Positions 21,775-61,902 of a DNA stretch of 64,000 nt are shown here, piece after piece (the first letter of the stretch is position 1; each line of letters starts with the position of its first letter). The notes beneath the pieces were generated by a model, which had not been told where the DNA came from, ran no database searches, and was given only the letters and a program-made list of their open reading frames with translations. The translations under genes and the position numbers were made by a program. The DNA is from a plasmid, in the sequence record NZ_CP019209.1; one strand, 5' to 3'.

Positions 21775-21811
21775 CCTATTCCATAGAACAAAAAATCCTT
21801 TATACTAGCAC

Positions 21812-29555: not shown

Positions 29556-29622
29556 CTACAATTAACTAGACAGAAAAATTAAGGTGTGTAGACTAGAAGA
29601 AAACATACCAGGAGGAATTTTT

Positions 29623-29913: not shown

Positions 29914-29948
29914 TCGATGCGAATAAGCATCTTTACCCTATATCAGCG

Positions 29949-30785: not shown

Positions 30786-31182
30786 CTTTAACTGTTAGCT
30801 CCTGCCGAAGATCGTCACATCCGAGGAGGCTCATTGTCAAGGACAATCGGAATAGCATACGGAAAGAAGTTCTGCACCTTATAAAATTTGTCAAAAAAAC
30901 TGTTGCCATTCCATACATCTTTCAGCATTTTACTATATTTGGTATATAGTGCTAAGGTTCATATTCGATTGACAAGAGAATATAAATTGATCTATTTCTA
31001 TTTCCTAAGTTGAGTAAACATAACTTTGCCCTTTATAAATATCTTCCCTCTCTCTCTTCTCTCTATATTTTATATTTGAATAATCATATCAAGGTATTCC
31101 AACGAAATGCCAATGGATTTCGAAGCTTTTATAACTTTAAATTACGGATCATGATTTGGCATGGGGAATCATTACTAATAAA

Positions 31183-31759: not shown

Positions 31760-31771
31760 ATTAAAAACCTC

Positions 31772-33274: not shown

Positions 33275-33287
33275 TTTATTTCTCCCC

Positions 33288-33989: not shown

Positions 33990-34137
33990 TCCAATTTTTT
34001 ATTATTTTTGGATAATAACTCCAAAAACAATATAGCATCCGCTTTCATAAAAGTAAAGATAAAAATGGAGTATTTAGGAGTTTTTTTTATTATTTTGGAG
34101 TATAATGGAGAAAAGTTGAAATTGTAGAGGAGTTTGT

Positions 34138-34956
34138 ATGAGTTATATCTATTTAATTAAAGAAAATTATCCATTTTTAACGAAGTCTGAAAAAAAAGTC
34201 GCTGATTTTATTTTAAATTCTGGGAAAACTATTATTTATAGTACGATGAGTGATATTAAGAAAAACACAAAAGTTGGCGATGCTACTATTATTCGTTTTT
34301 GTCAAAAAATTGGTTTTTCTGGTTTTTCTGATTTAAAAATTGAAATTGCAAAGGAAGACTTTAGTCAAAAAAAAGAACATCCGACTAGTGTAAAGTACTA
34401 TGATGAAATTGCTAATAGTTTAACAGAAGCTCTCTATTCCACTATTAGGCTTTTAGACGAAGAAAAATTGAATGAAGCCATTAAAATGATCACTCAATCA
34501 AAAAACATATATATATTTGGAGTGGGATCTAGTGGAAATACTAGTCTTGATTTAGAAAATATGTTTCTTCGCGTTGGAGTTCAAGCAAAAGCTGTACTAG
34601 ACCCTCATTTTCAAGCTCAAGTCGCTTCTTTATTAACAGTTAATGATTTAGTAATCATTTTTTCTTTATCTGGGAAAACGAAAGATACTTATGATTCATT
34701 GAAAATAGCTAAAAAAAATGGCGCAAAAATTATTGCTATAACTAACTATATTCATTCACCTATAGGAAAGTCTGCAGACTTAGTTTTACAAACAGCCATT
34801 GAAGAATTTCTTAATGGTGGATCTTTAGCTGGAAAAATATCACAACTTTATATTTGTGATCTATTAGTTCATGGTTATGAACAAAACAATAATATTGATT
34901 CAGTTGAATTAAGAGAAAAAGTTTTGTGCTCTATTATTGATAAAAGTATTGAGTGA
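34138..34956 (+). CDS. RpiR/MurR-family regulator (HTH plus SIS), divergent from nanE operon
   Basis: 272 aa. N-terminal HTH_6 (DIKKNTKVGDATIIRFCQKIG), SIS domain. Confidence 0.8.
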   Translation: MSYIYLIKENYPFLTKSEKKVADFILNSGKTIIYSTMSDIKKNTKVGDATIIRFCQKIGFSGFSDLKIEIAKEDFSQKKEHPTSVKYYDEIANSLTEALYSTIRLLDEEKLNEAIKMITQSKNIYIFGVGSSGNTSLDLENMFLRVGVQAKAVLDPHFQAQVASLLTVNDLVIIFSLSGKTKDTYDSLKIAKKNGAKIIAITNYIHSPIGKSADLVLQTAIEEFLNGGSLAGKISQLYICDLLVHGYEQNNNIDSVELREKVLCSIIDKSIE

Positions 34957-39055: not shown

Positions 39056-40306
39056 CTAATCATTTTTTTCGCTTTTTAGCTTGGCATTATCATCTAATTT
39101 AAAGAATGGATAGTATATCAAAACATTTATTGCAATTGTTATTACTTGAATCACTGCACCACTTATTCGTCCACCAGAAGCTAAAAATCCGGCAATTATC
39201 GGTGGAGTTGTCCATGGGATTGTTGCTCCTACAGGTTTTGCAACTAATCCCATACTCATTGAAAAATAAGTAATTAATGTTGTTACTACTGGTGCAGTTA
39301 CAAATGGAATTAACATTTTTATATTTAATATAGTTGGAAACCCAAATAGAAGGGGCTCTGCTACTTGAAAACTTACTGGAGCGATTGATAACTTACCTAA
39401 AGTTTTATTTTCCTGACTCTTTGAAAAGAAAAATGTTAAAATGGCAAGTGCAAATAAACAACCTGCACCACCAGAAAAAACAAAGTTATATAAGAATTCA
39501 TAAGTTATAATGTTAGGAAGTTCTTTTCCAGCTTGATAAGCAATTCTATTTGCATCAGAGTTTTGCAATAATAACGGTTCAATTATTGGCCCCGTTACCT
39601 GTGCACCATGAATACCAAACATCCAAAAGAAACATTGAATAAGTATAACCAATATAATTCCTGGTAAAGTTTTCGTCAGTAAAGATAGTGGTTTTGCGAG
39701 TGTATCTGCAATAAGAGCATGAACATTTTCAATTCCAAGTTTATAACAAATTACAACAACAATAAACCATAGTAGAACGACAAAAAAGCCAGGAATAATA
39801 GCAACGAAAGCTCGGCTTACATTTGGTGGAACGCTTGCCGGCATTTTAATTGTAATATTTTTAAGTACAAACCACCGGAAAATTTCTGTAGATACAAGTG
39901 CTACAATAATACCAACAAAAAGACCCGAGGTACCAAAGTATTTTGTTGGAAATCCTATAGAACCATCTGCATCCAATAAAGGTGTAAGTAAAACATATCC
40001 ACTCAAAGATAATAATCCTGCTGATAATGAGTCTACACCATAAGTCTTTGCTAGATTGTGTCCCAAAGAGTAGGTAACAGCTAATCCAATAATACCAAAT
40101 GTTGAATCTGATGCTTTGTTCAAAAAGGATTGTACTCCAATTTCAGATAACCATTTTGTAAATCCTTCTATCGGGAAATTTGCTAATAACATAAAAAAGG
40201 AACCAATAATGATTAATGGCATAACTGCAGCCATGCTGTCTCTTAAAGCTAGTAGATGTCTTTGATTACTAATTTTTGCAGCTATTTTTTGAACTTTGTC
40301 GATCAT
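39056..40306 (-). CDS. PTS lactose/cellobiose-family EIIC (orphan; no IIA/IIB nearby)
   Basis: 416 aa, ~10 TM segments, Lac/Cel IIC family features. Confidence 0.75.
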   Translation of the reverse strand: MIDKVQKIAAKISNQRHLLALRDSMAAVMPLIIIGSFFMLLANFPIEGFTKWLSEIGVQSFLNKASDSTFGIIGLAVTYSLGHNLAKTYGVDSLSAGLLSLSGYVLLTPLLDADGSIGFPTKYFGTSGLFVGIIVALVSTEIFRWFVLKNITIKMPASVPPNVSRAFVAIIPGFFVVLLWFIVVVICYKLGIENVHALIADTLAKPLSLLTKTLPGIILVILIQCFFWMFGIHGAQVTGPIIEPLLLQNSDANRIAYQAGKELPNIITYEFLYNFVFSGGAGCLFALAILTFFFSKSQENKTLGKLSIAPVSFQVAEPLLFGFPTILNIKMLIPFVTAPVVTTLITYFSMSMGLVAKPVGATIPWTTPPIIAGFLASGGRISGAVIQVITIAINVLIYYPFFKLDDNAKLKSEKND

Positions 40307-40324
40307 CTTTCATTTCCTCCTTAA

Positions 40325-41251
40325 TTAACGATAATTAGATTTTCCTAACATAATAATTTGATGACGATATCCCCGAATTGCTTGACCCAAAGCAAAAATA
40401 TTTTCTGGAAGACAAATACCATTTAAAGAATCCCCTATGTGTTGAATATCAGCTCCACATGCTTTTGATGCTAATGCAATTTTTTTAATAGTTTCTTGGT
40501 CAGAAGAGTCTTGGCTTGTTCCATTAGCCGTTAGTACTAGAACTTTTTCCTCAATAGATTTATTTCTATTAAAATCTTTTATATAATCAACGATTCCTCG
40601 CAAATCACTTTCCATGAAATACGGAACAGTGTATGGAGCAGGAACTAATAAAATATCTACACCTGTTTTAATAAATCTTTTTGCTATATCTAAGTTCATA
40701 ATTGGTTCATCAACACCAGCACCATGCATTTTTCCAGCGATAATTAATCCATTAAAAATTGATTTGGATAATGTTATTGCTTTCTCAATAGTTCTATTAG
40801 ATACTCCTGTTCCTGGATTTCCAGTTAAACAAATAAAATTAAAGCCTAATTCATTTGCCTTTTTTAAAGTCTCAGGAGAAACGATTCTACCACTTGAAAT
40901 TTCAGTTCGATTTTCACTCATCAAAACTTCTTTGTCTACAGGTTCTAAATTTACACCAATAGCTCTTCCTAAAGCTTTTTTAATCCAGATTATTGGATTC
41001 TCTTTTAGAGTTAAAGGTACACCTGAAATTTGAGGATTAAAAAGATCTAGTGCATTAAACAAAATTAAATCAGCTCCAGCAGCTCTCTCCAATTCTGCAT
41101 TTGTCACTGATTTTCCCATGTAAGGACAGCTACTTGGCACATTTTCTGCCATAATTGTTCTACCTTCAGAAGCCAAAATTGCCTGCTTTAATTCCATCGG
41201 CTTAGCTTTCAAAAAATCTGAAGCTGAATAATCTAACAATCTTTTATTCAT
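40325..41251 (-). CDS. conserved hypothetical protein, 308 aa, in sugar-phosphate catabolic cluster
   Basis: Intact ORF between aldolase and EIIC. Contains FICLTGNPGTGVS and GKMHGAGVD segments. No family confidently recognised from sequence alone. Confidence 0.5.
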   Translation of the reverse strand: MNKRLLDYSASDFLKAKPMELKQAILASEGRTIMAENVPSSCPYMGKSVTNAELERAAGADLILFNALDLFNPQISGVPLTLKENPIIWIKKALGRAIGVNLEPVDKEVLMSENRTEISSGRIVSPETLKKANELGFNFICLTGNPGTGVSNRTIEKAITLSKSIFNGLIIAGKMHGAGVDEPIMNLDIAKRFIKTGVDILLVPAPYTVPYFMESDLRGIVDYIKDFNRNKSIEEKVLVLTANGTSQDSSDQETIKKIALASKACGADIQHIGDSLNGICLPENIFALGQAIRGYRHQIIMLGKSNYR

Positions 41252-44260: not shown

Positions 44261-45030
44261 CGATGTCTCTCCTAACTGGCTATAACCACAATGTAAGTAT
44301 AGTAGTGGTATTTTTTATGAGTCAATACTAAGAACAATCTTTTTTTTATTTTCATTTTTAGTCTTGTTAATATGATTGACATCACTGACTTTAATAGGAA
44401 TAAAAGGAAATGAAAAATAATTTTCCAACTTTTTTCATTCAAGAACACCCTCTATTTTTTTCTTTTTCTCTCTTCAACTGGTATCTTTTTTTAGCTCCTA
44501 CCCTTCATCAATCAACAATTTGCCTCAAACTATCAAATGACTACTTACCAGTGAATTGAACGATTTTCGGAAGACGGAGGAAAAGTGCAACGCATTTGCT
44601 TTGGTTTCAAATCATTTATGAACATGAAAATTAAAGTTGAAACGTATTCAAAAGGGAGTCTATGAGAATAAATTCCTCTAATACTAGCTCGTGTATCAAG
44701 TTGCTGGCTTTGTCCTTTCGTTCTCTCTTAAGAGGAATTTATGTTGTTTCTTATCCCTTTTAAAGGTCTCTGTATTCTCCAGTTTATCTGAATTCGTATC
44801 ATAATTTTTCTTATTCTTGAATAACTTTTTTTATTATCACTTCGTTTAGTCAACCGTGCTTATATAATATCCTTCTACCTCGAAATAGCATTTTTCAAAC
44901 TTTGGAATGGCAACAGTTTTTTTGACAAATTTTATAAGGTGCAGAACTTCTTTCCGTATGCTATTCCGATTGTCCTTGACAATGAGCCTCCTCGGATGTG
45001 ACGATCTTCGGCAGGAGCTAACAGTTAAAG

Positions 45031-45867
45031 TTAGACTGCCTCGCTAGCGTTAGCACATCCGAGCTCATTATCAAGGATTCGCTGCGCCAATCTCTGGTTA
45101 CGGTAACCAACCGGTGTCTCGTAGCCAAGTGTACCGTGCAACCGAAGGTGGTTCCACCAATTGACATAGTCAAATAACTCCAAATCCAATTGTTGTAAGG
45201 TTTCAAATGTGTATTGATAGACAAATTCTACTTTCAACGACTTATAAGTTGATTCAGCTACGGCATTATCAAAAGGACAGCCTTTATGACTCAATGATCG
45301 ATTGATGTCAAAAGTTGTTAATAATTCATCAATAGCTTGGTTATCAAACTCTTTTCCACGATCAGTATGAAAAATCTCAACCTCTGTCAGAGGTTGTTTG
45401 ATACGGCTAAATGCTTTTTTTACTAGAACGGCATCTTTATGTTCTCCACAAGAATAGCCGAGAATTTCTCGATTGAACAGATCCAAAATGAAACAGACAT
45501 AATTCCATTTTTTCCCGACTCGTACATAAGTCAAGTCTGTTACGATCGCTTCTAATGGGTTGTCTCTTAAGAATTTACGATTCAATACGTTTGTCGTTTT
45601 GGCTTCATTGCAAGTAGAATGATGTACTTTAAAATAAGCAACAGTATAGCTCGATTTTAATCCTCTATTTTTCATGATTCTACTAATTTTTCGTCGGCTG
45701 ATCTGAATGCCTCGTTTTGATAAGGCTTTTTTTATTTTTCTTGAGCCGTAGGCCTTTCGGCTGCGGATAAATTCTTCAGCGACTACTTCTTCAAGTTCTG
45801 ATTCGTCTTTCTTTGGTTTTGATTGATAATAATAGGACTGACGTGATAGACCTAATATTCTGCACAT
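45031..45867 (-). CDS. IS3-family transposase OrfB
   Basis: 278 aa identical to 29949..30785. Confidence 0.85.
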   Translation of the reverse strand: MCRILGLSRQSYYYQSKPKKDESELEEVVAEEFIRSRKAYGSRKIKKALSKRGIQISRRKISRIMKNRGLKSSYTVAYFKVHHSTCNEAKTTNVLNRKFLRDNPLEAIVTDLTYVRVGKKWNYVCFILDLFNREILGYSCGEHKDAVLVKKAFSRIKQPLTEVEIFHTDRGKEFDNQAIDELLTTFDINRSLSHKGCPFDNAVAESTYKSLKVEFVYQYTFETLQQLDLELFDYVNWWNHLRLHGTLGYETPVGYRNQRLAQRILDNELGCANASEAV

Positions 45868-45902
45868 CGCTGATATAGGGTAAAGATGCTTATTCGCATC
45901 GA

Positions 45903-46193
45903 TTACTTGTCTCTTCGTCCGAATATCAGCGCTGCTTGCTTTAAAATATCATTTTCCATTTCTAATTGCTGGTTTCTTTTACGTAGTTCTAACAATTCTT
46001 TTTGTTCAGGCGTAAGATTATCTTTTTCTTTGAATGAACCACTCGTTTTAGATTGCTTTACCCATTTGTCAAATGCTGAAGCCGTTAGTTCATATTCTCG
46101 AATGATTTCTACACGTGGCTTTCCAGCTAAGTAAAGATTGACGATTTGTTGCTTGAATTCTTGTGAAAAAGTTCTTCGTGTTCTCTTAGACAT
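45903..46193 (-). CDS. IS3-family transposase OrfA
   Basis: MSKRTRRTFSQEFKQQIVNLY... Confidence 0.85.
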   Translation of the reverse strand: MSKRTRRTFSQEFKQQIVNLYLAGKPRVEIIREYELTASAFDKWVKQSKTSGSFKEKDNLTPEQKELLELRKRNQQLEMENDILKQAALIFGRRDK

Positions 46194-46441
46194 AAAAATT
46201 CCTCCTGGTATGTTTTCTTCTAGTCTACACACCTTAATTTTTCTGTCTAGTTAATTGTAGCCTATCCACTTATATTATAAATTCACATGATTATCGAATT
46301 TTATTAAGTTAGTTTTTCTTGTAAATCTCTGTTCCCAATGAAACTCGAGACACTTATTTTAAAGAGGAAACAATGTGGTATTTAAATAGCCCTCTTGTGA
46401 TGTGCACCCCAAAAGTTAGACTAGAAATCTAATTAAAAGGG

Positions 46442-47790: not shown

Positions 47791-48180
47791 TTCAACTTTT
47801 GGGGTTCAGTTCATTGTATGGGCTACTCTGTGATACTTATTAGCCATTAAACTATTTTACCCACATAGCATATATTTTGAAATCGTTCATTCCGTAAATT
47901 CAACTAAATATGCCTAAAAAAATAAAAAATCTAAGATAGAATAAGATTTATTCAGTCTTAGATGGATTTATAGCAACTTTTTCGTAACAACTTTAAAAAA
48001 TACGAAAAGAAAGAGCTGTTTTACTCTGACTACGTTGCTAAATTGTCGTTTAATCATTCATTTAAACCAAATCTTTTTTTATAGAATTCGTTTTAATCCT
48101 CCTGAATCCAAAAACTATGAAAACCGTAATTAAATAGTTAAGAGTTTTTAACCACCATAATTCTCTCGGCTATTTTGAAA

Positions 48181-49473
48181 TCAGATAAATTTTGATCGGA
48201 CACATAGTTGAATAAACCTACCGTTGTTACGGAAGGTAAATCGCATACTTTTCATTCTAGAGGAGAAGGTCTCGTTGATCATTAACTGATTAAGCACCAT
48301 AGCCCAGTTTTGAATTCGACCACCTGACCACTTCGCGTGTAATTCTTTCGTGCGTAAATAAAGTAGTTTTAGGAGTGCATTCTCATTAGAGAACGCTCCT
48401 TTTTTTGTGACTTTTCTGAAGCTGGAGTGGACACTTTCAACCGCATTGGTAGTGTACATAATTTTTCGAATGGCACTACCATAATCAAATAGTTGTTCAA
48501 CATGTGCAAAGTTCCGTTTCCAGACATCTACAGCACCAGAATAATGAGACCACCGATTTTGAAAACTGTCAAAAGCAGCATGTGCAGCGTTTAGAGAAGA
48601 AGCACCGTAGAACTTTTTCATATCTCGGCAGACTTCCTTATAGTCCTTACTTGGAATATAGCGCAATGCATTTCGAACAAGATGAACAATACAGCGCTGA
48701 ACAATTACCGATGGAAAGATCGCTTTTGCGCCTTCTTCGAGGCCAGAAACACCGTCCATCGAAATGAAAAAGACATCTTCGACACCACGTGCTTTCAGTT
48801 CATCAAATACTTGCATCCAGCGATTTTTAGATTCTGTTTGATTTAACCATAATCCTAAAATCTCCTTATTTCCTTTGAGATCATAGCCAAGAATGGTGTA
48901 TACAGCATATTCTTTGGCTTCATAATTTTCTCGTAAAGTAACATACATACAATCAACGAATAGAAAGGCATAACACTTTGCTAGGGGGCGGGCTTGCCAT
49001 TCTTCCAATTCAGGAAGGACAGCGTCAGTGATATCTGAAATCATTTCATGGGAAATATCAAAGCCATAAATAGCTTCGACGGTTGCGGCAATATCTCGTT
49101 GACTCATTCCTCGTGCATACATGGAAAGAACCTTCCCTTCGATGTCGGAGACATCTCGTTTTCTCTTAGGAATTAACTCTGGTTCAAAGGAAGCTTCCCG
49201 GTCTCTAGGAACATCAATAGCTACTTCACCAAAACTGGTTTTAAGCGTTTTAGTTCCATAGCCATTTCGACGGTTATCGTGTTCCTTAGGCTCTTTAGAA
49301 TGGGCATCATAACCTAAATGATTATTCAATTCTCCTTGAAGCATTTTTTCAAAAAGGGGCCCAAACACATCTTTCAAAGCATCTTGCATGTCATCGACAG
49401 ATTCAGGTTGATAGGCATTCAGAATGGATTCAGCTAACTTTTCGGCATCAGGATTTCTTTTCTTTCTAGCCAT
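48181..49473 (-). CDS. IS256-family (mutator-type) transposase, second subtype
   Basis: MARKKRNPDAEKLAES...; conserved IS256-family core (VPRDR, FVDCMYV, CIVHLVRN). Confidence 0.75.
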   Translation of the reverse strand: MARKKRNPDAEKLAESILNAYQPESVDDMQDALKDVFGPLFEKMLQGELNNHLGYDAHSKEPKEHDNRRNGYGTKTLKTSFGEVAIDVPRDREASFEPELIPKRKRDVSDIEGKVLSMYARGMSQRDIAATVEAIYGFDISHEMISDITDAVLPELEEWQARPLAKCYAFLFVDCMYVTLRENYEAKEYAVYTILGYDLKGNKEILGLWLNQTESKNRWMQVFDELKARGVEDVFFISMDGVSGLEEGAKAIFPSVIVQRCIVHLVRNALRYIPSKDYKEVCRDMKKFYGASSLNAAHAAFDSFQNRWSHYSGAVDVWKRNFAHVEQLFDYGSAIRKIMYTTNAVESVHSSFRKVTKKGAFSNENALLKLLYLRTKELHAKWSGGRIQNWAMVLNQLMINETFSSRMKSMRFTFRNNGRFIQLCVRSKFI

Positions 49474-49746
49474 CGTGTAATCACCTCTTGATCTTATTGT
49501 AGAAAAAGAAAAACCGCGAAGCAACCACCTGCCTAGGATTAATGGTTACTTACACGGTTTATATTACACTCTCATCATTAAAAAAGTATCTTTCGATATT
49601 ACTAAACAATGAAATTATCTATTTGAAATTTAAATCTGATAATATATTGAGTGTTCCAATGAGGGCTTTGATCCTATTATCCATATCTTTTTCAGTTTTA
49701 ATATTGATACACATTATAAGAAAAAGAAACTTTTGGTTAATTTATT

Positions 49747-50007
49747 TCATCCCAGTGCAAAATATAAAAAAGTAAAATAGACCATAGGCAATAGATTAAC
49801 AATTAATATAATACAAGCAAATATTCTATTCATTGTATTTCTGCTTTCAAAAAGTTCTAATATTGAAAGTATAATTCCACAAATGCCTATAATAAGTATG
49901 GGAATAAGATTAGAAAATAACACCCCGAGCCAATCTGTGAAAATTACTATATTTACTAATATCCCTATTAACATACCTATCATATTTATTAAATCAATTT
50001 TTTTCAT
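49747..50007 (-). CDS. hypothetical small membrane protein (2-3 TM)
   Basis: 86-aa hydrophobic ORF in an IS-flanked gap. No family assigned; may be spurious. Confidence 0.2.
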   Translation of the reverse strand: MKKIDLINMIGMLIGILVNIVIFTDWLGVLFSNLIPILIIGICGIILSILELFESRNTMNRIFACIILIVNLLPMVYFTFLYFALG

Positions 50008-50147
50008 TAGATATTTCTCCTTTATTAAATCTGAAGTACTTATATTAAAATAATTCTAAACTATTTACCTCAAAAAGTGCAATAAATTATTTCTGAACAA
50101 TAAAATGATAGTCAAAACAAAAAAATATTGTTAATCGTTCAGAGCCA

Positions 50148-51487
50148 TCCGAGAGTGTAAAATATTTTGTGTAAATGAAAAAATCCATACAAAAAAGGAA
50201 GGCGCTTCTGTAGAATAAAGTTAACGACAACCAATTCACAGAAAAGAGGACTTCCCTATGAATGATTTTACTACAGAAATTGTGCAAACTCTAGTCACTA
50301 AAGGCGGTTTAAATGAATTATTCCGTTCGCACTTAGAAAAAGCGATAAACACACTCCTACGGACTGAATTAACGGCTTTTTTAGATTACGAAAAATATGA
50401 TCGCACTGGTTTTAATTCAGGTAATTCGAGAAACGGTTCTTACTTTCGATCAATCAAAACCGAATATGGTGAATTAACATTGGAAATACCTAGAGATCGT
50501 AATGGTGAGTTTAAACAACAAACTTTACCAGCCTACAAAAGAACAAACGATACATTGGAAACCACTATTATCCATTTATTCGAAAAAGGTGTTACGATGT
50601 CTGAAATTGCTGATTTGATCGAAAAAATGTACGGTCATCACTATACTCCACAAACCATGTCCAACATGACTAAAGTTCTGACTGAAGAAGTAAATGCCTT
50701 TAAATCCAGAGCCTTAAATGATAAGTATGTCGCTATTTTTATGGACGCTACTTACATTCCACTAAAACGTCAAACCGTATCCAAAGAAGCGATTTATATT
50801 GCCATTGGTATACGAGAAGACGGCACTAAAGAAGTACTGAGTTATGCGATTGCTCCAACTGAATCAACATACGTTTGGAATGAGCTGCTACAGGATATTA
50901 ACTCCAGAGGAGTTCAAGAAGTCTTGCTTTTTATTACGGACGGCTTAAAAGGCATGAAAGATACTATCCATCAAATTTATCCTAAAGCAAAATATCAGCA
51001 TTGTTGTATCCATGTATCTCGTAACATCGCTCATAAAGTACGTGTCAAAGACCGAAAAGAAATCTGTGATGACTTTAAGGCTGTTTATCAAGCTAACTCA
51101 AAAGAAGAAGCGAATACCTTCTTATCCGGCATGATTGAGAAATGGAAGAAAAACTATCCTAAAGTGACGCAGTCACTCATAGAAAACCAAGACTTATTAA
51201 CTTTTTATGATTTTCCACCTAGCATTCGTAGAACCATTTACTCAACCAATCTAATCGAGTCTTTCAATAAGCAAATTAAAAGATACAGCCGTAGAAAAGA
51301 GCAGTTTCAAAATGAAGAATCACTAGAACGCTTTCTAGTCAGCATTTTTGATACATACAATCAAAAATTTCTAAACAGAAGCCATAAAGGTTTTCAACAG
51401 GTAACCGATACATTAGTTTCAATGTTTACTGAGTAACTAATTATTTTGCAGGAGGACAATTTATTTACACAAAATATTTTACACTCT
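50148..51487 (+). mobile_element. IS256-family IS, copy 2 (perfect IRs)
   Basis: IRL GAGAGTGTAAAATATTTTGTGTAAAT at 50148 and its reverse complement at ~51462-51487. Confidence 0.8.
50258..51436 (+). CDS. IS256-family transposase
   Basis: 392 aa. Confidence 0.85.
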   Translation: MNDFTTEIVQTLVTKGGLNELFRSHLEKAINTLLRTELTAFLDYEKYDRTGFNSGNSRNGSYFRSIKTEYGELTLEIPRDRNGEFKQQTLPAYKRTNDTLETTIIHLFEKGVTMSEIADLIEKMYGHHYTPQTMSNMTKVLTEEVNAFKSRALNDKYVAIFMDATYIPLKRQTVSKEAIYIAIGIREDGTKEVLSYAIAPTESTYVWNELLQDINSRGVQEVLLFITDGLKGMKDTIHQIYPKAKYQHCCIHVSRNIAHKVRVKDRKEICDDFKAVYQANSKEEANTFLSGMIEKWKKNYPKVTQSLIENQDLLTFYDFPPSIRRTIYSTNLIESFNKQIKRYSRRKEQFQNEESLERFLVSIFDTYNQKFLNRSHKGFQQVTDTLVSMFTE

Positions 51488-51699: not shown

Positions 51700-52023
51700 A
51701 TATCTGCTCCCGTCTTTATGATCGTGCCAAAGCAATCAAAAGAAAATTGCGAATCACTTAGATCGAAAGTTTACTCAAACAAAAGCATTGTCAGCGGTTG
51801 TCACGGATTTAACTTATGTTCGGGTCGGGACAAATTGGGCTTATATTTGTTTGATGATTGATTTATTCAATCGTGAAATTATTGGCCATTCTTGCGGAAA
51901 TAAAAAAGATGCGCAGCTTGTAAAAAGGGCCATTCAAAGCATTCCTTACTCACTTCAAGAAATCGAACTCTTCCATACGGATCGTGGAAAAGAATTTGAT
52001 AACCAAACCATTCAGAATCTCAT
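51700..52023 (+). pseudogene. IS3-family orfB fragment (plus-strand copy), ends at the inverted junction
   Basis: VTDLTYVRVGTNWAYICLMIDLFNREIIGHSCG...LFHTDRGKEFDNQTI. Confidence 0.6.
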
Positions 52024-52505
52024 GAATGGTTTGGTTATCAAATTCCTTTCCACGGTCTGTATGAAAAAGCTTGACGTCTGTTAAAGAATACGGTATCCGT
52101 CCAAAGGCTTCTTTTACCAATGAGGCATCTTTCTTCTCACCACAGGAATAACCAATAATTTCTCGATTAAACAAATCAAGTATTAAGCAGATATAATGCC
52201 ACTTTTTCCCCACGCGAACATAAGTAAGATCCGTAACGATGGCTTCCAATGGCTGTTCTTGTGTAAAGGTCCGATCTAATACATTCGCTGTTTTCGCTTC
52301 ATTACAAGCTGTTCGTTGCCCTTTAAAATGAGCGATCGTATAGGTAGATGTCAATCCGCGGCGTTTCATGATTCGACCGATTCGGCGCCGACTGAGTTGA
52401 AGCCCACGCTTTGCTAAACACTTCTTCAATTTTCGGGTACCGTAAGCCTTTCGGTTTCGCTTGATAATAGTAGGTCTGACGAGAAATATTTAGAATTTTG
52501 CACAT
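52024..52505 (-). pseudogene. IS3-family orfB, 3'-truncated at the inverted junction
   Basis: VTDLTYVRVGKKWHYICLILDLFNREIIGYSCG...LFHTDRGKEFDNQTIHEIL then junction. Contiguous with orfA and IRL. Confidence 0.65.
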
Positions 52506-52540
52506 CGCTGATATGGAATATTTATGCTTGTTGGCATCAA

Positions 52541-52831
52541 TTACTTGTCTTTTCGTCCGAATATCAGCGCCGCTTGCTTTAAAATATCATTCTCCATTTC
52601 GAGTTGCTTATTTTTCTTTCTTAGTGCGATCAATTCTGCTTGTTCTGGTGTTAAGTTGTCTCTTTTTTTGAATGAGCCCGTTGATTGTGCTTGCTTCATC
52701 CATTTATCGAAAGAAGAAGGCGTAAGCTCATACTCTCGAATAATTTCTGCGCGAGGCTTACCAGCGAGATAGAGATTGACGATTTGTTGTTTGAATTCTT
52801 TTGAATAGGTTCTTCGTTGACGTCTTGACAT
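52541..52831 (-). CDS. IS3-family transposase OrfA
   Basis: MSRRQRRTYSKEFKQQIVNLYLAGKPRAEIIREYELTPSSFDKW...; IRL at ~52880-52907. Confidence 0.8.
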   Translation of the reverse strand: MSRRQRRTYSKEFKQQIVNLYLAGKPRAEIIREYELTPSSFDKWMKQAQSTGSFKKRDNLTPEQAELIALRKKNKQLEMENDILKQAALIFGRKDK

Positions 52832-53032
52832 GAAAAATCCTCCAGTGTGTTTTTTATTATTCTACACACCTTATTTTTTCTGTCTAGTCTAGTGTAGCCG
52901 ATTCACATAAAATGGACTTTGTCTACAGTCTGTATCTTCTCTTTTTGTGTCTACTTTATTGACATCTATCCAATTAGTAATCAATAAATATTTCAATAAT
53001 AGTCTAGCTATATATAAATAACATTACAAAAC

Positions 53033-53428
53033 CTAAAGAATTATATCTGATAACCTTCCATGTTTTTCATATGATGTTACTCTTTCAACTTTATTATTAT
53101 CATCGACAAAAACAACCTTAGGTCTATGATCCTTAACCTCATTTTCATTTAATTCACAATATGCCATTAAAATTATTTTATCTCCAGTTGATACACATCT
53201 AGCTGCAGCTCCATTCAAGCAAATCATCCCTGTTCCTCTCTCTCCAGCTATTGTATAAGTTTCAAATCTATTTCCATTATTAACATCAACTATTTGTACT
53301 TTTTCATATTCATATATTCCTGCTGCTTCTAATAAATTCATATCAACAGTAATACTTCCTACATAATCTAACTCAGCTTGTTCAACTGTAGCTCTATGTA
53401 TTTTTCCTTTTAACATTGTAACTTTCAT
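53033..53428 (-). CDS. panD: aspartate 1-decarboxylase
   Basis: [25 protein letters not shown] with the G-S self-cleavage site. RBS AGGGGG 6 nt before the ATG. Confidence 0.85.
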
Positions 53429-53437
53429 TATAGCCCC

Positions 53438-54286
53438 CTATTGTAATTCAAATGTAAAATTATCTATTAATCTTGTTTTTCCTATAAATACTGCTATTGC
53501 AACTAAAACTGATTTTTCAATATAATTTACTCTTTGTAATGATAAAGAATCAACAACTTCTACATAATCAATCTTTGCCAAATTATAAGTATTTATATTT
53601 TTACTTATTATCTCAATTATTTTTAAGCTGTCTCTCTCTCCATTATTTAAAGCTTCCTTAGCTAAAGTTAAAGATTTATTTAAAATAGTAGCTGAAGATC
53701 TTTCCTCTAAACTTAAGTATGTGTTTCTAGAACTTTTAGCTAGTCCATCCTCTTCCCTTATAATTGGACACCCTACAACGTCTATATCAATATTAAGGTC
53801 CCTAACCATTCTTTTAATTACAGCTAACTGTTGTGCATCCTTTTCTCCAAAATAAGCTCTATCTGCTGGTATTATGTTAAATAATTTACTTACAACAGTG
53901 CAAACCCCTCTAAAATGTATTGGCCTACTAGCTCCACATAAACCTTCTGTTAATCCAGTTATATTAACAAAAGTACTTGCATTGTCACAATACATCTCTT
54001 CAACTTCAGGATTAAATATTGCTGTTGCTCTACCTCTTGTGCATACTTCTATATCTCTTTCTAAGTCTCTTGGATAACTACCTAAATCTTCATTTTTCCC
54101 AAACTGAGTTGGATTTACAAAGATACTTACAACAACTTTATCATTTTCTTTTGATGCTTTTCTAATTAAACTTTCATGACCTTCATGTAAATATCCCATA
54201 GTAGGAACTAATCCTACCTTTAAGCCTTGTTTTTTCCACTCTTTTACTTGACTTCTAACATCATTCACTGTTTTAAATATAACCAT
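53438..54286 (-). CDS. panC: pantoate--beta-alanine ligase
   Basis: 282 aa; VPTMGYLHEGHESLI HIGH-like motif. Confidence 0.85.
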   Translation of the reverse strand: MVIFKTVNDVRSQVKEWKKQGLKVGLVPTMGYLHEGHESLIRKASKENDKVVVSIFVNPTQFGKNEDLGSYPRDLERDIEVCTRGRATAIFNPEVEEMYCDNASTFVNITGLTEGLCGASRPIHFRGVCTVVSKLFNIIPADRAYFGEKDAQQLAVIKRMVRDLNIDIDVVGCPIIREEDGLAKSSRNTYLSLEERSSATILNKSLTLAKEALNNGERDSLKIIEIISKNINTYNLAKIDYVEVVDSLSLQRVNYIEKSVLVAIAVFIGKTRLIDNFTFELQ

Positions 54287-54300
54287 ATTTCTTGACCCTT

Positions 54301-55128
54301 TTAATATAATTTTTCTAAAACATCATCACTTATTTTAAACCCATGTTCTGGACCTGGAAAAACTCCATCTTTTACTTCCTCTATATATTTTGTAAATGCT
54401 TTATTCATCTCTTCTGATAAATTAGCATATTTCTTCACAAATTTAGGGGTAAAATCACTATACATCCCCAACATATCTTGATATACAAGAATTTGTCCAT
54501 CACACCCTGCACCTGCTCCAATACCAATTGTAGGTATTGATATCTCTTTAGAAATTAACTCTGCAAGCTTAGTTGGAACACATTCTAACACTACAGCGAA
54601 TGCTCCTGCTTTTTCTACAGCTTTAGCAGCTCTTATTAATTCTTTAGCAGCTTCCTTGTCCTTTCCTTGTACCTTAAATCCTCCAAATGCATTAACAGAT
54701 TGAGGTGTTAAACCTATATGCGCCATAACAGGTATAGAAGCCTTTACTATAGCCTCTATTTTATCGCATACTTCTATCCCTCCTTCTAATTTAACAACCT
54801 GAGCTCGTCCTTCTTTTATTAATCTTCCTGCATTAACTACTGAATCATATACTGAAGTTTGATAAGACATAAATGGCATATCTGCAACAACTAAAGTGTT
54901 CTTAGCTCCTCTTGTAACTGCTCTAGTATGATGAATCATGTCTTCCATTGTTACTGAAAGTGTATCTTCATGTCCTAGACATACCATACCAAGAGAATCT
55001 CCTACTAATATTCCATTTATCCCAGCTTCATCAATTATTTTTGCTGTTGAATAGTCATAAGCTGTAAGCATTGTTAATTTTTCATTTCTTAATTTAGATT
55101 CTTTAAATGTAACTGCTGTATTTTTCAT
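54301..55128 (-). CDS. panB: 3-methyl-2-oxobutanoate hydroxymethyltransferase
   Basis: 275 aa; [32 protein letters not shown]. Confidence 0.85.
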
Positions 55129-55139
55129 CTATTTCTCTC

Positions 55140-55985
55140 CTAACTCTCTCCTAAATACTTTTCTAATTCACTATAATCTCTATTAATATTTTTTAACATA
55201 GCTATCTCTAATACATTTTTTGATAATAGCATATATAAAGCTCTGTCTTCATCTGATAAAACTTCACAGTGACCTTTAATTGTTGAAATATCACAACGTT
55301 CAACTGGCCCTGTCAAACTTTCTATAATTCCTTTTTCTTTTATATTTCTAATATTAAATTCAATTAATGGATATAAAGCTTCAATTGCCATTTTTTCAGT
55401 AAATCCACATTGAATTAGATATGTAACGCTTGTATTAATAAGTCCTAGCACAAGGTTACTAGATACTACTGATGCGGCATGATAAAGAGATTTATTCTCC
55501 TTAGATACAATTACAGTACTATTACCTAACTTTTTGAAGAAATCACATAAAAACTTTGCATATTTTTCATCGCCTTCAATTGTTATAAAAGATTTTTTTA
55601 ATTTTTTGTATGAATTATATTTATCTGATATTGAAAACATAGGATGGACAGAATAGCCATAAGCACCATAGTCCTGTATATTTGAAAAGATATCTGAAGA
55701 TATTGCACCACTGCAATGGCAGATTAATTTGTTTTTGATTTGATAATTTTTAATTTCTTGCCATACCTCCTGAATTTGACCATCAGGAGTCGTAATGAAA
55801 ATAGTATCATTTTCATCTACTAATTCTCTTAAGTTTAAATATTGTTTACTAGATGTAAAATTCGAAGCTGCTAATGACGAGTCTTCGCTTTTACTATAAA
55901 ATCCTGTTACTTGTATTTTATGTTCCTGGAAATACTTCCCGAATGAACAACCTACCTTGCCGGCTCCAATAAAACCAACGTTCAT
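55140..55985 (-). CDS. Rossmann-fold DUF2520-type putative ketopantoate reductase (PanG-like)
   Basis: MNVGFIGAGKVG dinucleotide-binding N-terminus. GGAGG RBS 7 nt upstream of ATG 55985. Position at the head of panBCD. Confidence 0.6.
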   Translation of the reverse strand: MNVGFIGAGKVGCSFGKYFQEHKIQVTGFYSKSEDSSLAASNFTSSKQYLNLRELVDENDTIFITTPDGQIQEVWQEIKNYQIKNKLICHCSGAISSDIFSNIQDYGAYGYSVHPMFSISDKYNSYKKLKKSFITIEGDEKYAKFLCDFFKKLGNSTVIVSKENKSLYHAASVVSSNLVLGLINTSVTYLIQCGFTEKMAIEALYPLIEFNIRNIKEKGIIESLTGPVERCDISTIKGHCEVLSDEDRALYMLLSKNVLEIAMLKNINRDYSELEKYLGES

Positions 55986-56142
55986 AATTATCACCTCCAT
56001 AAAGAAGTGAGACTACAAGTCCCATTCTTACGATATGAGCTTAAAAATAAAAATTAAATCAAATATACAGTATGTTTTTTTCAAATATCATCCATAGTTA
56101 ATTTATCATAATATCCCATATTTTAAAATAAAAGATAGCGTA

Positions 56143-57445
56143 AAATATTTTGTGTAAATAGAAATTTAGGGTAGAAAAAAAAGTCCATTCTGTAAAATTA
56201 AAGTTACCACACAGAAATTTTATAGGAGGACTTTCTCATGACTAAATTTACTATAGAAATTATGCAAACACTACTCAATAAAGGGGATTTAGATGAATTA
56301 TTTCAGGATCATTTAGAGCGAGCGATTAATTCACTTCTACAAGCAGAGCTAACTGCTTTTTTAGATTACGAAAAATATGATCGAAATGGATTCAATTCAG
56401 GAAATTCCCGTAACGGGAATTATTCACGTACATTTAAAACAGAATATGGCGAGTTGAATTTAACTATTCCTAGAGATCGGAATGGCGAATTTTCTCAACA
56501 AACACTACCAGCATATAAGCGAACCAATGATTCATTAGAAACGACCATTATCCAATTATTTCAAAAAGGCATTACTATGGCTGAAATCTCCAAATTAATT
56601 GAAAAAATGTATGGTCACCACTATACGCCACAAACAATCTCCAACATGAGTAAATTGGTGGCTGAAGATGTTTTAGCTTTTAAAGAAAGAACGTTAGAAG
56701 CCAATTATTCCGTTATATTTATGGATGCGACGCATATCCCTGTGAAGCGACAGACTGTTTCGAAGGAAGCAGTGTATATTACGATTGGTATTCGTTTGGA
56801 TGGAACCAAAGAAGTTCTTGGGTTTACTATTGCCCCAACTGAGTCTGCTTATATTTGGAAAGAAGTTCTTCAAGATCTTAGAAAACGTGGGTTAGAAGAA
56901 GTTTTATTAGTAGTGACAGACGGATTAAGCTGTATTGAAGAAAGTATCCATAGTGTGTATCCGAATGCCCAATTTCAACAATGTTGTGTGCATGTATCTA
57001 GAAATATCGCTCATAAAGTTCGTGTTCGAGGTCGAAAAGAAATTTGTGAGGATTTCAAATTGGTTTACCAAGCGAATTCAAAAGAAGAGGCATTGGATCA
57101 CATCGACTTTATGACTAGGAAATGGAAAAAGCAGTATCCAAGAGTCGTCAATTTACTCTTGAATCCTGCCCTATTAACCTTTTATAATTTCCCTCACGCC
57201 ATCAGACGAACAATTTATTCGACGAACCTGATTGAAGGCTTTAATAAGCAGCTAAAACGATATACTCGAAGAAAAGAACAATTCCCTAATGAAGAATCTC
57301 TAGAGAGATTCTTCATTTCTCAATTTAATCAATATAACCAAAAATTTTTAGGTAGAATTCACAAGGGATTTAAAGAAATTCAGGATACATTAGAGTCGAT
57401 GATTTAACTGTAATTAACAGAATGGATTTTCCATTTACATATAAT
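56143..57445 (+). mobile_element. IS256-family IS, copy 3 (more divergent)
   Basis: IRL AGCGTAAAATATTTTGTGTAAAT; right end ATTTACATATAATTCTTGACGCT. Confidence 0.7.
56238..57407 (+). CDS. IS256-family transposase
   Basis: 389 aa. Confidence 0.85.
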   Translation: MTKFTIEIMQTLLNKGDLDELFQDHLERAINSLLQAELTAFLDYEKYDRNGFNSGNSRNGNYSRTFKTEYGELNLTIPRDRNGEFSQQTLPAYKRTNDSLETTIIQLFQKGITMAEISKLIEKMYGHHYTPQTISNMSKLVAEDVLAFKERTLEANYSVIFMDATHIPVKRQTVSKEAVYITIGIRLDGTKEVLGFTIAPTESAYIWKEVLQDLRKRGLEEVLLVVTDGLSCIEESIHSVYPNAQFQQCCVHVSRNIAHKVRVRGRKEICEDFKLVYQANSKEEALDHIDFMTRKWKKQYPRVVNLLLNPALLTFYNFPHAIRRTIYSTNLIEGFNKQLKRYTRRKEQFPNEESLERFFISQFNQYNQKFLGRIHKGFKEIQDTLESMI

Positions 57446-57695
57446 TCTTGACGCTACCATAATCTAAATAACCATCATATTCATCTACTACTTATATAAT
57501 TGAGTTTTATTAAACTTTTTAAGTTTCTATTCTATCAAATATTTAAACAATCTCTGCATCCGAAAAGACTACCTCGTATAGTTTTACTAACAATATTTTT
57601 ATTAGCGTGTTCAAATCCTGATTTCTTGTATCAATTATTTTCTGTTCACTTTCAATAAGAAAAAAGTCTTTACTTCCATGGATAATAATAAGGGT

Positions 57696-58505
57696 TCTGT
57701 TGCAAAGTTTTAAATAAAGAATAAAATCCCTTACGGTATCTATGATTTAAGCTGGGATTCCCAATAATACCTTGATTTCAGTACAGACCGAAAACCCGAA
57801 GAGAGTGCCTTCTTTTCGGGTTTTCTTATATAATCCTCGGATGGCTTCCATGCCTTTAATCGTTGTAGAGGCAGTGCGTAAACTTCGATAGAATTTATTG
57901 CGTCTCTTTACTGGACGATGGTCTTGTTCAATCAAATTATTCAGGTATTTAATGGTACGATGTTCTGTCCCTTGATAAAAGCCGTATTCTTTTAGTTTCT
58001 TAAAGGCACTTGTAATAGAGGGGGCTTTATCTGTGACTACAACCTTCGGTTCATCAAACTGCTTCACTAACCGCTTAAGAAAAGCATAGGCTGCTTGTGT
58101 GTCCCGTTTTTTACGTAACCAAATATCCAAGGTTAAACCATCTGCATCGATGGCTCGATACAAATAATGCCATTTTCCTTTAATTTTGATGTACGTTTCA
58201 TCCATTTTCCATGAATAAAAGGATTTTTTATTTTTCTTTTTCCAAATTTGATAGAGTAGTTTGCCATATTCTTGCACCCAACGATAAATCGTCGTATGAG
58301 AAACGTTAATGCCACGATCATATAAGATTTCTTGAACTTCACGATAGCTAAGGTTATAACGAAGATAGTAGCCCACGGCTACAATAATCACATCCTGCTG
58401 AAATTGCTTTCCTTTAAAATGATTCATCGTCATTCCTCCTGCTATCTTTTTCTATTATTCTACCTTATTTGATAGTAGATTTAAAACTTTGCAACAGAAC
58501 CAAGA
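57696..58505 (-). mobile_element. IS1216 (IS6 family), second full copy, same orientation as the first
   Basis: IRs GGTTCTGTTGCAAAGTTTT at 57696-57714 and 58487-58505. Confidence 0.9.
57747..58433 (-). CDS. IS1216 transposase
   Basis: 228 aa. Confidence 0.9.
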   Translation of the reverse strand: MTMNHFKGKQFQQDVIIVAVGYYLRYNLSYREVQEILYDRGINVSHTTIYRWVQEYGKLLYQIWKKKNKKSFYSWKMDETYIKIKGKWHYLYRAIDADGLTLDIWLRKKRDTQAAYAFLKRLVKQFDEPKVVVTDKAPSITSAFKKLKEYGFYQGTEHRTIKYLNNLIEQDHRPVKRRNKFYRSLRTASTTIKGMEAIRGLYKKTRKEGTLFGFSVCTEIKVLLGIPA

Positions 58506-58954: not shown

Positions 58955-60278
58955 AGATAAAGTCCGTATAATTGTGTAAAAGTAAAAAGGCCATATAACA
59001 GTCCTTTTACGGTACAATGTTTTTAACGACAAAAACATACCCAGGAGGACTTTTACATGACCCAAGTACATTTTACACTGAAAAGCGAAGAGATTCAAAG
59101 CATTATTGAATATTCTGTAAAGGATGACGTTTCTAAAAATATTTTAACAACGGTATTTAATCAACTAATGGAAAATCAACGAACAGAATATATTCAAGCA
59201 AAAGAATATGAACGAACAGAAAACCGACAAAGTCAACGAAATGGCTATTATGAGCGCAGCTTTACGACACGTGTAGGCACGCTAGAATTAAAAGTACCCA
59301 GAACACGTGATGGCCATTTTTCACCCACAGTGTTTGAACGTTATCAACGAAACGAAAAAGCCCTCATGGCTTCAATGTTGGAAATGTATGTATCAGGCGT
59401 TTCAACTCGTAAAGTATCAAAAATTGTGGAAGAACTTTGTGGTAAATCCGTCTCTAAGTCCTTCGTTTCTAGCTTAACAGAACAGCTAGAACCTATGGTT
59501 AACGAGTGGCAGAATCGTTTATTATCAGAAAAAAATTATCCTTACTTAATGACCGATGTACTCTATATAAAAGTACGAGAAGAAAATCGAGTACTCTCAA
59601 AAAGCTGTCATATAGCGATTGGAATAACCAAAGATGGCGACCGTGAAATTATCGGCTTCATGATTCAAAGTGGCGAAAGCGAAGAGACCTGGACAACATT
59701 TTTTGAATACCTAAAAGAACGCGGTTTACAAGGTACGGAACTCGTTATTTCTGATGCGCACAAAGGATTAGTCTCTGCCATTAGAAAATCCTTCACCAAC
59801 GTAAGTTGGCAAAGATGCCAAGTTCACTTCCTAAGAAATATCTTTACCACCATTCCTAAAAAAAATTCAAAATCTTTCAGAGAAGCTGTTAAAGGAATTT
59901 TTAAGTTCACAGATATTAACTTAGCGCGTGAGGCTAAAAATCGATTGATTCATGATTATATCGATCAACCAAAATATTCAAAAGCTTGCGCATCATTGGA
60001 TGATGGATTCGAAGACGCCTTTCAATATACCGTACAAGGAAATTCCCACAATCGACTAAAGAGTACCAATCTAATTGAACGACTGAATCAAGAAGTACGC
60101 AGAAGAGAAAAGATTATTCGCATCTTCCCCAATCAAACATCAGCCAATCGCTTAATTGGAGCCGTTCTTATGGACCTACATGATGAATGGATTTATTCTT
60201 CAAGAAAATACATCAATTTTGATAAGTAGAAATGGTAAAAACATTGTATAGCATTTTACACAGGAGTCTGGACTTGAC
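58955..60278 (+). mobile_element. IS256 (Tn4001-type)
   Basis: IRL GATAAAGTCCGTATAATTGTGTAAAAG; IRR ...TTTTACACAGGAGTCTGGACTTGACTC; 1324 bp. Confidence 0.85.
59057..60229 (+). CDS. IS256 transposase
   Basis: 390 aa MTQVHFTLKSEEIQSIIEYSVKDDVSKNILTTVFNQLMENQRTEY... matches the classical IS256 Tnp as recalled. Confidence 0.85.
   Translation: MTQVHFTLKSEEIQSIIEYSVKDDVSKNILTTVFNQLMENQRTEYIQAKEYERTENRQSQRNGYYERSFTTRVGTLELKVPRTRDGHFSPTVFERYQRNEKALMASMLEMYVSGVSTRKVSKIVEELCGKSVSKSFVSSLTEQLEPMVNEWQNRLLSEKNYPYLMTDVLYIKVREENRVLSKSCHIAIGITKDGDREIIGFMIQSGESEETWTTFFEYLKERGLQGTELVISDAHKGLVSAIRKSFTNVSWQRCQVHFLRNIFTTIPKKNSKSFREAVKGIFKFTDINLAREAKNRLIHDYIDQPKYSKACASLDDGFEDAFQYTVQGNSHNRLKSTNLIERLNQEVRRREKIIRIFPNQTSANRLIGAVLMDLHDEWIYSSRKYINFDK

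Positions 60279-60358: not shown

Positions 60359-61902
<1,544 letters not shown>

Follow-up and report, generated by a model that had tools for sequence, protein, structure and literature searches.

The window analysed here, a stretch of 64,000 nucleotides from plasmid record NZ_CP019209.1, carries at 53033–56000 four tightly spaced, co-directional open reading frames (ORFs) on the minus strand for the synthesis of pantothenate (vitamin B5). We are confident that they form a Clostridium-derived panG-panB-panC-panD operon that was captured together with its leader and circulates in enterococci within a module of ~4.8 kb. The replicon is an accessory megaplasmid of Enterococcus faecium, collinear with NZ_LR135220.1, in keeping with the mobile or accessory replicon supposed in an earlier first-pass annotation of the window, and the same module is present on chromosomes of E. 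faecalis.

In the order of transcription the genes encode a DUF2520 (PanG-like) protein, PanB, PanC and PanD. The first, a candidate ketopantoate reductase, is a 286-residue ORF at 55140–56000 matched by PF10728 (E = 6e-34) and PF10727 (E = 3e-11). It is followed by panB at 54301–55128 (3-methyl-2-oxobutanoate, or ketopantoate, hydroxymethyltransferase, 275 residues; PF02548; TIGR00222, 351 bits against a cut-off of 207.55), panC at 53438–54286 (pantoate–beta-alanine ligase, 282 residues; PF02569; TIGR00018, 350 bits against 212.75; RefSeq WP_002287875.1) and panD at 53033–53428 (the pyruvoyl enzyme aspartate 1-decarboxylase, 131 residues; TIGR00223, 172 bits against 106). All four proteins are intact and cover their profiles end to end, PanB for example at positions 1–264 of the 264 of TIGR00222, and PanB, PanC and PanD score 1.6–1.7 times the curated cut-offs of the NCBIfam equivalog models. 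PanD aligns over its full length with the Mycobacterium tuberculosis enzyme (2c45), with conservation of Lys9, His11, the Gly24-Ser25 self-cleavage site, Arg54, Thr57, Tyr58 and Asn72; the processed alpha chains of PanD entries in the PDB have the aligned Ser25/Ile26 as their first residue. The first-pass annotation had proposed just such a complete de novo pathway, of PanB, a PanG-type reductase, PanC and a PanD with an intact G-S processing site, and both points are borne out, with scores above the family cut-offs. The true start of the DUF2520 gene is probably Met6 (ATG at 55985), giving 281 residues instead of 286. A GGAGG is found 8 nt before this codon, 281 residues is the length reported by many gene callers, and the corresponding gene of E. 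faecalis V583, EF1861, is listed at 845 bp.

From the content, integrity and context of the genes, de novo synthesis of pantothenate is the obvious function of the operon, and prototrophy would be its consequence. PanB would convert alpha-ketoisovalerate, itself derived from valine by transamination, and methylene-tetrahydrofolate to ketopantoate, which the DUF2520 protein, acting as a PanG-type enzyme, would reduce to pantoate with NAD(P)H. PanD, after self-cleavage at Gly24-Ser25, would supply beta-alanine from aspartate, and PanC would join pantoate and beta-alanine to give pantothenate, from which the core pantothenate kinase and coenzyme A (CoA) pathway of the host would continue. Each of these steps accords with established knowledge of the pathway, and the reductase step also with the literature. 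What we observe directly is the identity and integrity of the genes, the leader RNA, the location on a plasmid, the relationship to Clostridium and the sharing between species; flux through these enzymes in Enterococcus, regulation of the operon and any fitness benefit of independence from external vitamin B5 are inferred.

The nearest relatives of the operon are found in Clostridium. For the DUF2520 protein, beyond an enterococcal cluster of at least 99% identity, they are metagenome sequences at 81–89%, followed by proteins of C. septicum, C. chauvoei, C. celatum and C. gasigenes at 62–66%. PanB was scanned against one genome per species and the best 80 matches were listed, all of at least 71% identity; among these the best are C. 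cuniculi, C. celatum and other Clostridium at 85–87%, and Enterococcus does not appear among the best 80 of this species-representative scan, although closer genomes may exist. At the level of whole loci, two metagenome contigs (L002/L003) are closest among those compared, with identities of 89% (PanG), 95% (PanB), 83% (PanC) and 91% (PanD); a third (L006) gives 87%, 92%, 74% and 86%, and the C. cuniculi/C. celatum group 61–62%, 85–87%, 70–74% and 77–81%, respectively.

The Clostridium loci are core chromosome, in the order 5S rRNA, tRNAs, HD-HTH_11/3H-DAO-DUF1667, a T-box leader, serS, panG-panB-panC-panD and further tRNAs, and this order is kept across species whose shared proteins have diverged to 45–85% identity. 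Within this one conserved neighbourhood the PanG copies span 48–89% identity, whereas the enterococcal copies are all at least 99% identical to one another. GC content is 0.28–0.30 in the Clostridium loci and 0.29–0.30 in their operons alone, similar to the block in the window. A deep, syntenic and composition-matched Clostridium clade with a shallow enterococcal tip establishes the direction of transfer, from Clostridium to Enterococcus, and gut Clostridium sensu stricto is the likely donor group as judged by sequence relationship. The horizontal acquisition proposed in the first-pass annotation is thereby upheld: the closest relatives are chromosomal Clostridium operons in conserved synteny, and the enterococcal distribution is patchy. 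Similarity at the DNA level to L002/L003 (84–85%) runs from window position 56131 to 53043–53039 and occurs nowhere else in the 64 kb. The captured Clostridium DNA is therefore 3.09 kb long and comprises 131 bp of upstream leader and the four genes; its far end is no more than a few bases from the panD stop codon.

In the Clostridium donor-type neighbourhood, T-box leaders lie upstream of serS in L002 (3077–3276), L006 (2893–3092), L008 (3311–3515) and other loci, and two distinct types of serS occupy the same position, that of L002 being 84% identical to those of L019/L076 and 35–36% identical to those of C. cuniculi/celatum. This suggests that serS has been replaced within an otherwise conserved neighbourhood.

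The base composition of the block had been described as more AT-rich than its surroundings, and a comparison of GC content, overall and at third codon positions, agrees. Its GC content is 0.307 against 0.345 for the whole window, within the lowest 2.3% of equal-sized sliding windows, and GC at third codon positions (GC3) is 0.12–0.20 in the pan genes against a mean of 0.284 (SD 0.073) in the 47 other long ORFs of the window. Three of the pan genes are among the four ORFs of lowest GC3 out of 51, but two phosphotransferase system (PTS)/sugar clusters (31283–34956 and 39056–41251) are nearly as low. The plasmid is a compositional mosaic, and the pan block is its extreme but not its sole outlier.

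The leader carries a pan motif, a cis-regulatory RNA (Rfam RF01749), at 56013–56094 on the minus strand (41.7 bits against a gathering score of 36.2, E = 3e-6, full model 1–92). The cmscan alignment shows two tandem hairpins with two bulged A residues each, all four of which are present. Counted from the end of the motif, the annotated ORF start is 13 nt downstream and the probable Met6 start 28 nt downstream. The family is described as a stem with two conserved bulged A residues, usually in two tandem units, upstream of panB/panC/panD operons; a dimeric protein has been suggested as its partner (PMC2864571). We found RF01749 directly upstream of panG in nine Clostridium-type loci (37.8–58.4 bits), which indicates that the motif is ancestral and was transferred together with the genes. 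A pattern scan also detected a terminator-like hairpin, UGGGACU-UGU-AGUCUCA with a U-rich tail, at 56008–56024 on the minus strand. One stretch forms both the 3′ arm of pan hairpin 2 and the 5′ arm of this terminator-like hairpin, which may be an expression platform; the arrangement would fit an attenuation-type switch. Upstream of the motif the remaining Clostridium-derived leader occupies 56095–56131 on the minus strand, homology to Clostridium-type contigs beginning at 56131. It includes, just upstream of the pan motif, a TATGATAAAT box (window 56110–56101) that is conserved in our leader alignment A1, a putative native promoter −10 region; the same alignment has both hairpins and an invariant GGAGGTGATAA Shine-Dalgarno/start region. 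Expression of the operon would most likely start from this co-transferred native promoter, and the tandem hairpins in the 5′ untranslated region (UTR) would modulate it, if at all. A scan for consensus promoters was uninformative, with 29 sites against 21.4 ± 4.8 expected and a single match in the leader, inside pan hairpin 1; the putative promoter was placed by conservation in A1 instead.

Among plasmids the block is widespread in one lineage. The first 25,000 nucleotides of the window are 100% identical to several E. faecium plasmids, and in NZ_LR135220.1 (plasmid 2 of E. faecium E7040, 165.5 kb) the pan genes are in exact register with the window. Collinearity with complete E. faecium megaplasmids is as expected of the pLG1 type; the two records whose typing was looked up, NZ_CP023424.1 and NZ_LR135220.1, belong to rep_cluster_893. 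A 3.25 kb pan block matches 155 Enterococcus plasmid records of 134–287 kb, with identity of at least 99% in 148 and coverage of at least 80% in 102. More than 100 E. faecium plasmids carry it at 100% identity, and RefSeq annotates panB, panC, panD and a "Rossmann-like and DUF2520 domain-containing protein" there. The neighbouring PTS-lacD-SIS-GntR cluster, used as a marker other than an insertion sequence (IS), is present in 156 records, so that the pan block is a regular feature of the plasmid lineage.

To place this among plasmids at large, PanB was compared by tblastn with the 72,556 records of PLSDB. Matches were found in 400, led by Rhizobium (127), Enterococcus (105), Escherichia (21), Bradyrhizobium (19), Paracoccus (14) and Klebsiella (10). 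Only 106 matches exceed 60% identity, of which 105 reach at least 95% (104 at least 99%), equal to the number of Enterococcus records; the remaining 294 are below 60%. Pantothenate genes are therefore uncommon on plasmids overall and routine in this Enterococcus lineage, and the description of the operon as unusual cargo holds for plasmids generally but not for this lineage, where in 155 records it is standard.

The operon is also found on E. faecalis chromosomes. An exact PanB is found in 15171 blocks of an assembly collection, 346 of them with contigs longer than 1 Mb, and occurs on contigs of 2.9–3.5 Mb. By source name the proteins belong to E. faecalis and E. faecium, and a few other species, E. 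gallinarum, E. raffinosus and E. avium, contribute members as well. In ten places on contigs of 0.7–3.5 Mb a histidine kinase and response regulator, an IS256-family element, panG-panB-panC-panD and an intact IS3 follow one another, and beyond the IS3 lie an 86-residue ORF, another IS256 and a PTS EIIC with a GH35 beta-galactosidase. Window positions 52932–57692, 4.76 kb that include the operon and the adjacent IS256-family element, are ~99.5% identical to these loci, and 48130–50150 (IS256 and the 86-residue ORF) is also shared with them. The E. faecalis PanG allele is identical to the window protein at 285 of 286 residues, the difference being S171F. The copies differ in lying on the chromosome there and on a megaplasmid here. 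Downstream of the plasmid copy there are, in addition, an ISEf1 insertion and a degraded IS3, and an IS1216 takes the position expected for the histidine kinase.

The response regulator beside the chromosomal module has the V583 identifier Q833S2_ENTFA in UniProt. In strain V583 "Variable region F" includes EF1858 (aspartate 1-decarboxylase, 395 bp), EF1859 (pantothenate synthetase, 848), EF1860 (panB, 827), EF1861 (hypothetical, 845), EF1863 (histidine kinase, 1319) and EF1864 (regulator) (PMC7701990 Data Set S1). Compared at the level of the locus, the match of the operon, in its chromosomal setting, to EF1858–EF1861 is strong in gene lengths, order, neighbours and region label. An operon of typical composition in a conserved chromosomal backbone would have spoken against acquisition; instead, the chromosomal copies belong to E. 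faecalis, lie in a variable region and are atypical in composition. Upstream of the E. faecalis module we also observed an FtsX-ABC-FtsX set, the response regulator and the histidine kinase (L089–L097). At 90% identity the two-component system and the ABC permease there both fall into clusters with members from Streptococcus agalactiae, and the cluster of the response regulator, but not the other, also has one from Eubacterium ventriosum. "Variable region F" is therefore itself assembled from broadly mobile Bacillota DNA.

In our reading, of which we are confident, 3.09 kb of chromosomal DNA from Clostridium sensu stricto, extending from just upstream of the native promoter and pan-motif leader to the panD stop, was captured and came to lie beside an IS256-family element. 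The ~4.8 kb module so formed now circulates in enterococci: E. faecium carries it on pLG1-type megaplasmids, as in the window, and E. faecalis in "Variable region F" of its chromosome.

Several observations weigh against a working, regulated and beneficial operon. Enterococcal hairpin 1 has one broken base pair (window 56088/56074), which is A-A here, A-C in E. faecalis and G-C in every Clostridium pan-motif copy aligned; the window motif scores 41.7 bits against 50.4 in the closest Clostridium-type relatives, and the minimum free energy fold of the whole leader is no more stable than shuffled sequences (z = −0.37). In three complete E. faecalis chromosomes, AP026714.1 (L095), CP092576.1 (L096) and CP110035.1 (L100), the same 2 bp deletion frameshifts panC (847 against 849 bp), panB and panD being intact. 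About a third of the matching plasmid records are without a full-length block (102 of 155 cover at least 80%, and 105 have PanB), as in NZ_CP112863.1, which has an ISEfa8 insertion; the operon is therefore dispensable in some backgrounds. Finally, by transposon sequencing (Tn-seq) of E. faecalis MMH594 in rich medium, panC alone is called "Critical" while panB, panD and EF1861 are nonessential, a pattern unlike that of a pathway requirement. The Tn-seq pattern, the panC frameshift and the incomplete plasmid blocks argue against strong selection.

Three further details concern the same features. The broken pair of hairpin 1 corresponds to two successive changes, one on each side, that have not restored pairing. 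The shared frameshift conflicts with the "Critical" call of panC (EF1859). At the contig end of GCA_013308255.1 (L007), panC has 32 substitutions, mostly transversions, and 5 stop codons within nt 612–822, with 0–3 changes in the neighbouring genes; we rejected hypermutation, as the changes are confined to ~200 bp near the contig end and are most likely an artefact of assembly or read quality.

The operon might then be a neutral passenger in an IS-dense accessory region beside sugar-uptake and resistance genes, of no meaningful benefit and slowly decaying. We regard this as possible, though we doubt it. The reason would be that pantothenate is abundant in the gut and that enterococci import it. 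A Francisella panG mutant had no virulence defect, because pantothenate is widely available. The frameshift common to three complete genomes, the incomplete third of plasmid records and the nonessential panB, panD and EF1861 would all be explained, and the 100% identity among plasmids could reflect recent clonal spread and not purifying selection. On the other side, all four genes, and the leader with them, are intact here and in the majority of copies, and the same module has been kept in two species and on two kinds of replicon.

Its distribution is also uneven. Conservation figures for the orthologues of EF1858–EF1861 were taken from PMC7701990 Data Set S1: they are present in 73% of E. faecalis outbreak sequence types (STs; n = 11) against 23% of all E. 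faecalis STs (n = 74), in 40% of E. faecium clade A1 (n = 5) but 0% of clade B (n = 3), and in 12.5% of Enterococcus species (n = 24), or 8.3% for panD. The excess in outbreak STs and the presence in clade A1 and not clade B speak against a neutral passenger. The enrichment of the operon in outbreak lineages of two species is suggestive, and is confounded by linkage to other accessory genes. In the same source EF0168, the pantothenate kinase, is both core and critical. To the question of host pan genes, raised in the first-pass annotation, these data give an indirect answer: as a group, enterococci have no panBCD of their own. They do have panE paralogues and the downstream CoA pathway.

A bolder account is that a single recent capture, with its pan-motif riboregulator, freed hospital-adapted E. 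faecium and E. faecalis from dependence on vitamin B5 supplied by the microbiota or the diet, that selection then favoured the operon when these lineages dominated a gut from which antibiotics had removed the vitamin producers, and that the broken pair of hairpin 1 is an adaptive de-repression in hosts without the cognate regulator. Taken as a whole we think this rather unlikely.

That the Clostridium-derived operon brings its own reductase depends on the DUF2520 protein, which is a candidate PanG-type ketopantoate reductase by its domains, gene context and the literature. It consists of an N-terminal Rossmann NAD(P)-binding domain, with the GxGxxG motif GAGKVG at residues 12–17, and a C-terminal DUF2520 domain. 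Both in the window and in most of 80 related loci its gene heads the operon, upstream of panB. Alternatively, PanE paralogues of the host might perform the step and the DUF2520 gene have another role or be redundant. E. faecalis genomes have two or three panE paralogues; none of the NCBIfam equivalog models names the DUF2520 protein, which gives weak dehydrogenase matches only, and its nearest solved structures, 2i76 and 3d1l, are both uncharacterised. This alternative is nevertheless improbable, since the DUF2520 gene is the first operon cistron in essentially every Clostridia locus examined. The literature names EF1861 and Francisella FTT1388 as homologous DUF2520-type ketopantoate reductases (PanG), with PanG replacing PanE in Francisella and the same inferred for Coxiella, and a citing paper of 2026 states that E. 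faecalis V583 copies complement an F. novicida pantothenate-auxotrophic mutant. Miller and colleagues (2013) reportedly found EF1861 to be the complementing gene. The likeness of the window protein to F. tularensis PanG (FTT1388) lies in the Rossmann and DUF2520 architecture and in the pathway role given by gene context.

The first-pass annotation had placed the block between IS3 debris and an IS256-family element. Both are present on either side as described, but the left end of the latter (GATAGCGT...), where homology to ISEf1 starts, is at 56134 and not 56143, three bases from the edge of Clostridium homology at 56131. With a short downstream stretch this element occupies 56134–57692 on the plus strand (transposase 56238–57407, 389 residues, PF00872, E = 6e-114). 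It is more than a boundary, as it travels with the operon between species. It is followed at 57693–58500 on the minus strand by IS1216 (IS6 family; transposase 57747–58433), where identity with the E. faecalis chromosomal context ends. On the other side, ~100 bp downstream of panD (52932–53032, minus strand) is common to the E. faecalis copies and not to Clostridium; a pattern scan found no terminator-like site after panD. Beyond it lie the IS3-family debris (51788–52931, minus strand; orfA at 52541–52831 and rve fragments at 51788–52429) and an IS256-like ISEf1 copy (50151–51436, plus strand; transposase 50258–51436), which is situated between the debris and the region of the 86-residue ORF and IS256.

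As IS256-family transposases (50258–51436 and 56238–57407) thus lie on both sides of the block in the same orientation, it might be seen as a classical composite transposon bracketed by two copies of one element. We rejected this as very unlikely: ISEf1 and the right-hand element are different elements of only ~73–75% DNA identity, ISEf1 is absent at this place from the E. faecalis copies, which have an intact IS3 instead, and only the right-hand element is co-inherited with the operon.

That the operon is native to Enterococcus, or moved from there to Clostridium, was likewise rejected and is extremely improbable: identical copies do exist on E. faecalis chromosomes, but these are IS-flanked, in a variable region, and confined to 23% of STs and 12.5% of species; all enterococcal copies are at least 99% identical while those of Clostridium are deeply diverged (PanG 48–89%) within one conserved core neighbourhood; the distribution in enterococci is patchy; and a GC3 of 0.12–0.20 fits Clostridium and not the replicon.

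The window has several further features. One IS3-family element occurs three times within 23 kb, twice intact and once degraded (29548–30914, 44903–46268 and 51788–52831), and there are at least four different IS256-family transposases (48181–49524, 50258–51436, 56238–57407 and 59057–60229) in addition to IS1216. This unusual density of insertion sequences probably drives rearrangement between plasmids and the variable region of E. faecalis. A weak, sub-threshold Rfam match to the Enterococcus small RNA Ref64 falls within the IS256-family element beside the operon, at its 5′ end (56171–56238, minus strand; 22.4 bits against a gathering score of 44.3, E = 0.53), probably by chance or from an IS-end-derived transcript. 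The gene aac(6')-Ie-aph(2'')-Ia (60359–61798, minus strand) is truncated at its 5′ end: upstream of residue ~78 the end of an IS1216 transposase, its C-terminal part (...GFSVCTEIKVLLGIPA, then the stop codon), stands in place of the reading frame, so that the acetyltransferase domain is probably incomplete in the window, while the full 479-residue gene product is annotated in the otherwise collinear NZ_LR135220.1. Positions 13809–22957 combine raffinose/alpha-galactosidase, sucrose phosphorylase (gtfA) and sugar ABC/PTS genes in a cluster of the kind usual on megaplasmids of E. faecium; the use of raffinose has been linked to a megaplasmid cluster that contains two genes for alpha-galactosidase, agaA and agaB.

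The system may be set beside others of its kind. The Clostridium sensu stricto operons (C. cuniculi, C. celatum, C. cibarium and gut or metagenome lineages) have the same four genes in the same order, the pan-motif leader, the Shine-Dalgarno/start region and the base composition; they differ in protein identity (61–89% for PanG, 79–95% for PanB) and in lying between serS and tRNA genes without IS elements. The panCB genes of Rhizobium etli and R. leguminosarum are also on an extrachromosomal replicon, but they are of an unrelated lineage (~45% PanB identity) and their replicons are chromid-like, of 0.6–2 Mb. Such plasmid or chromid pan genes in Rhizobium are housekeeping copies and not an IS-flanked import. 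In V583, EF1858–EF1861 are alike in gene order and lengths, and the E. faecalis loci in general share the adjacent IS256-family element. The leader resembles the pan motif RNA (RF01749; Weinberg et al. 2010) found, for example, upstream of B. subtilis panB, in that a pan operon has tandem hairpins, each with two bulged A residues, within its 5′ UTR, and differs in the broken pair of hairpin 1; the host, moreover, may lack the recognising factor.

The operon as such is already known, being annotated in hundreds of enterococcal genomes, in RefSeq on more than 150 plasmids, and part of a published E. faecalis variable region; the reductase homologue EF1861 is in the literature, and the E. faecalis gene has reportedly been put to experiment. 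Our literature searches found no paper on the pan operon of E. faecium plasmids, its Clostridium origin or its leader; one preprint lists "pantothenate biosynthesis" among the cargo of the E. faecalis plasmid pL14-B, and other matches dealt with panE as an insertion site of Tn7086 and with recipes for growth media. The first-pass annotation made no mention of the pan-motif leader, the E. faecalis chromosomal copies or the prior literature. What is added here is gut Clostridium sensu stricto as the likely donor group, precise boundaries for the captured DNA, a pan-motif leader that was transferred along with the genes and has a lineage-specific broken pair, and a 4.76 kb module common to E. faecium plasmids and E. 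faecalis chromosomes. These points refine a known picture and raise no new question.

By the classical description, enterococci require pantothenate. An acquired pathway for its synthesis in outbreak lineages of two species could therefore aid colonisation when the microbiota is depleted.

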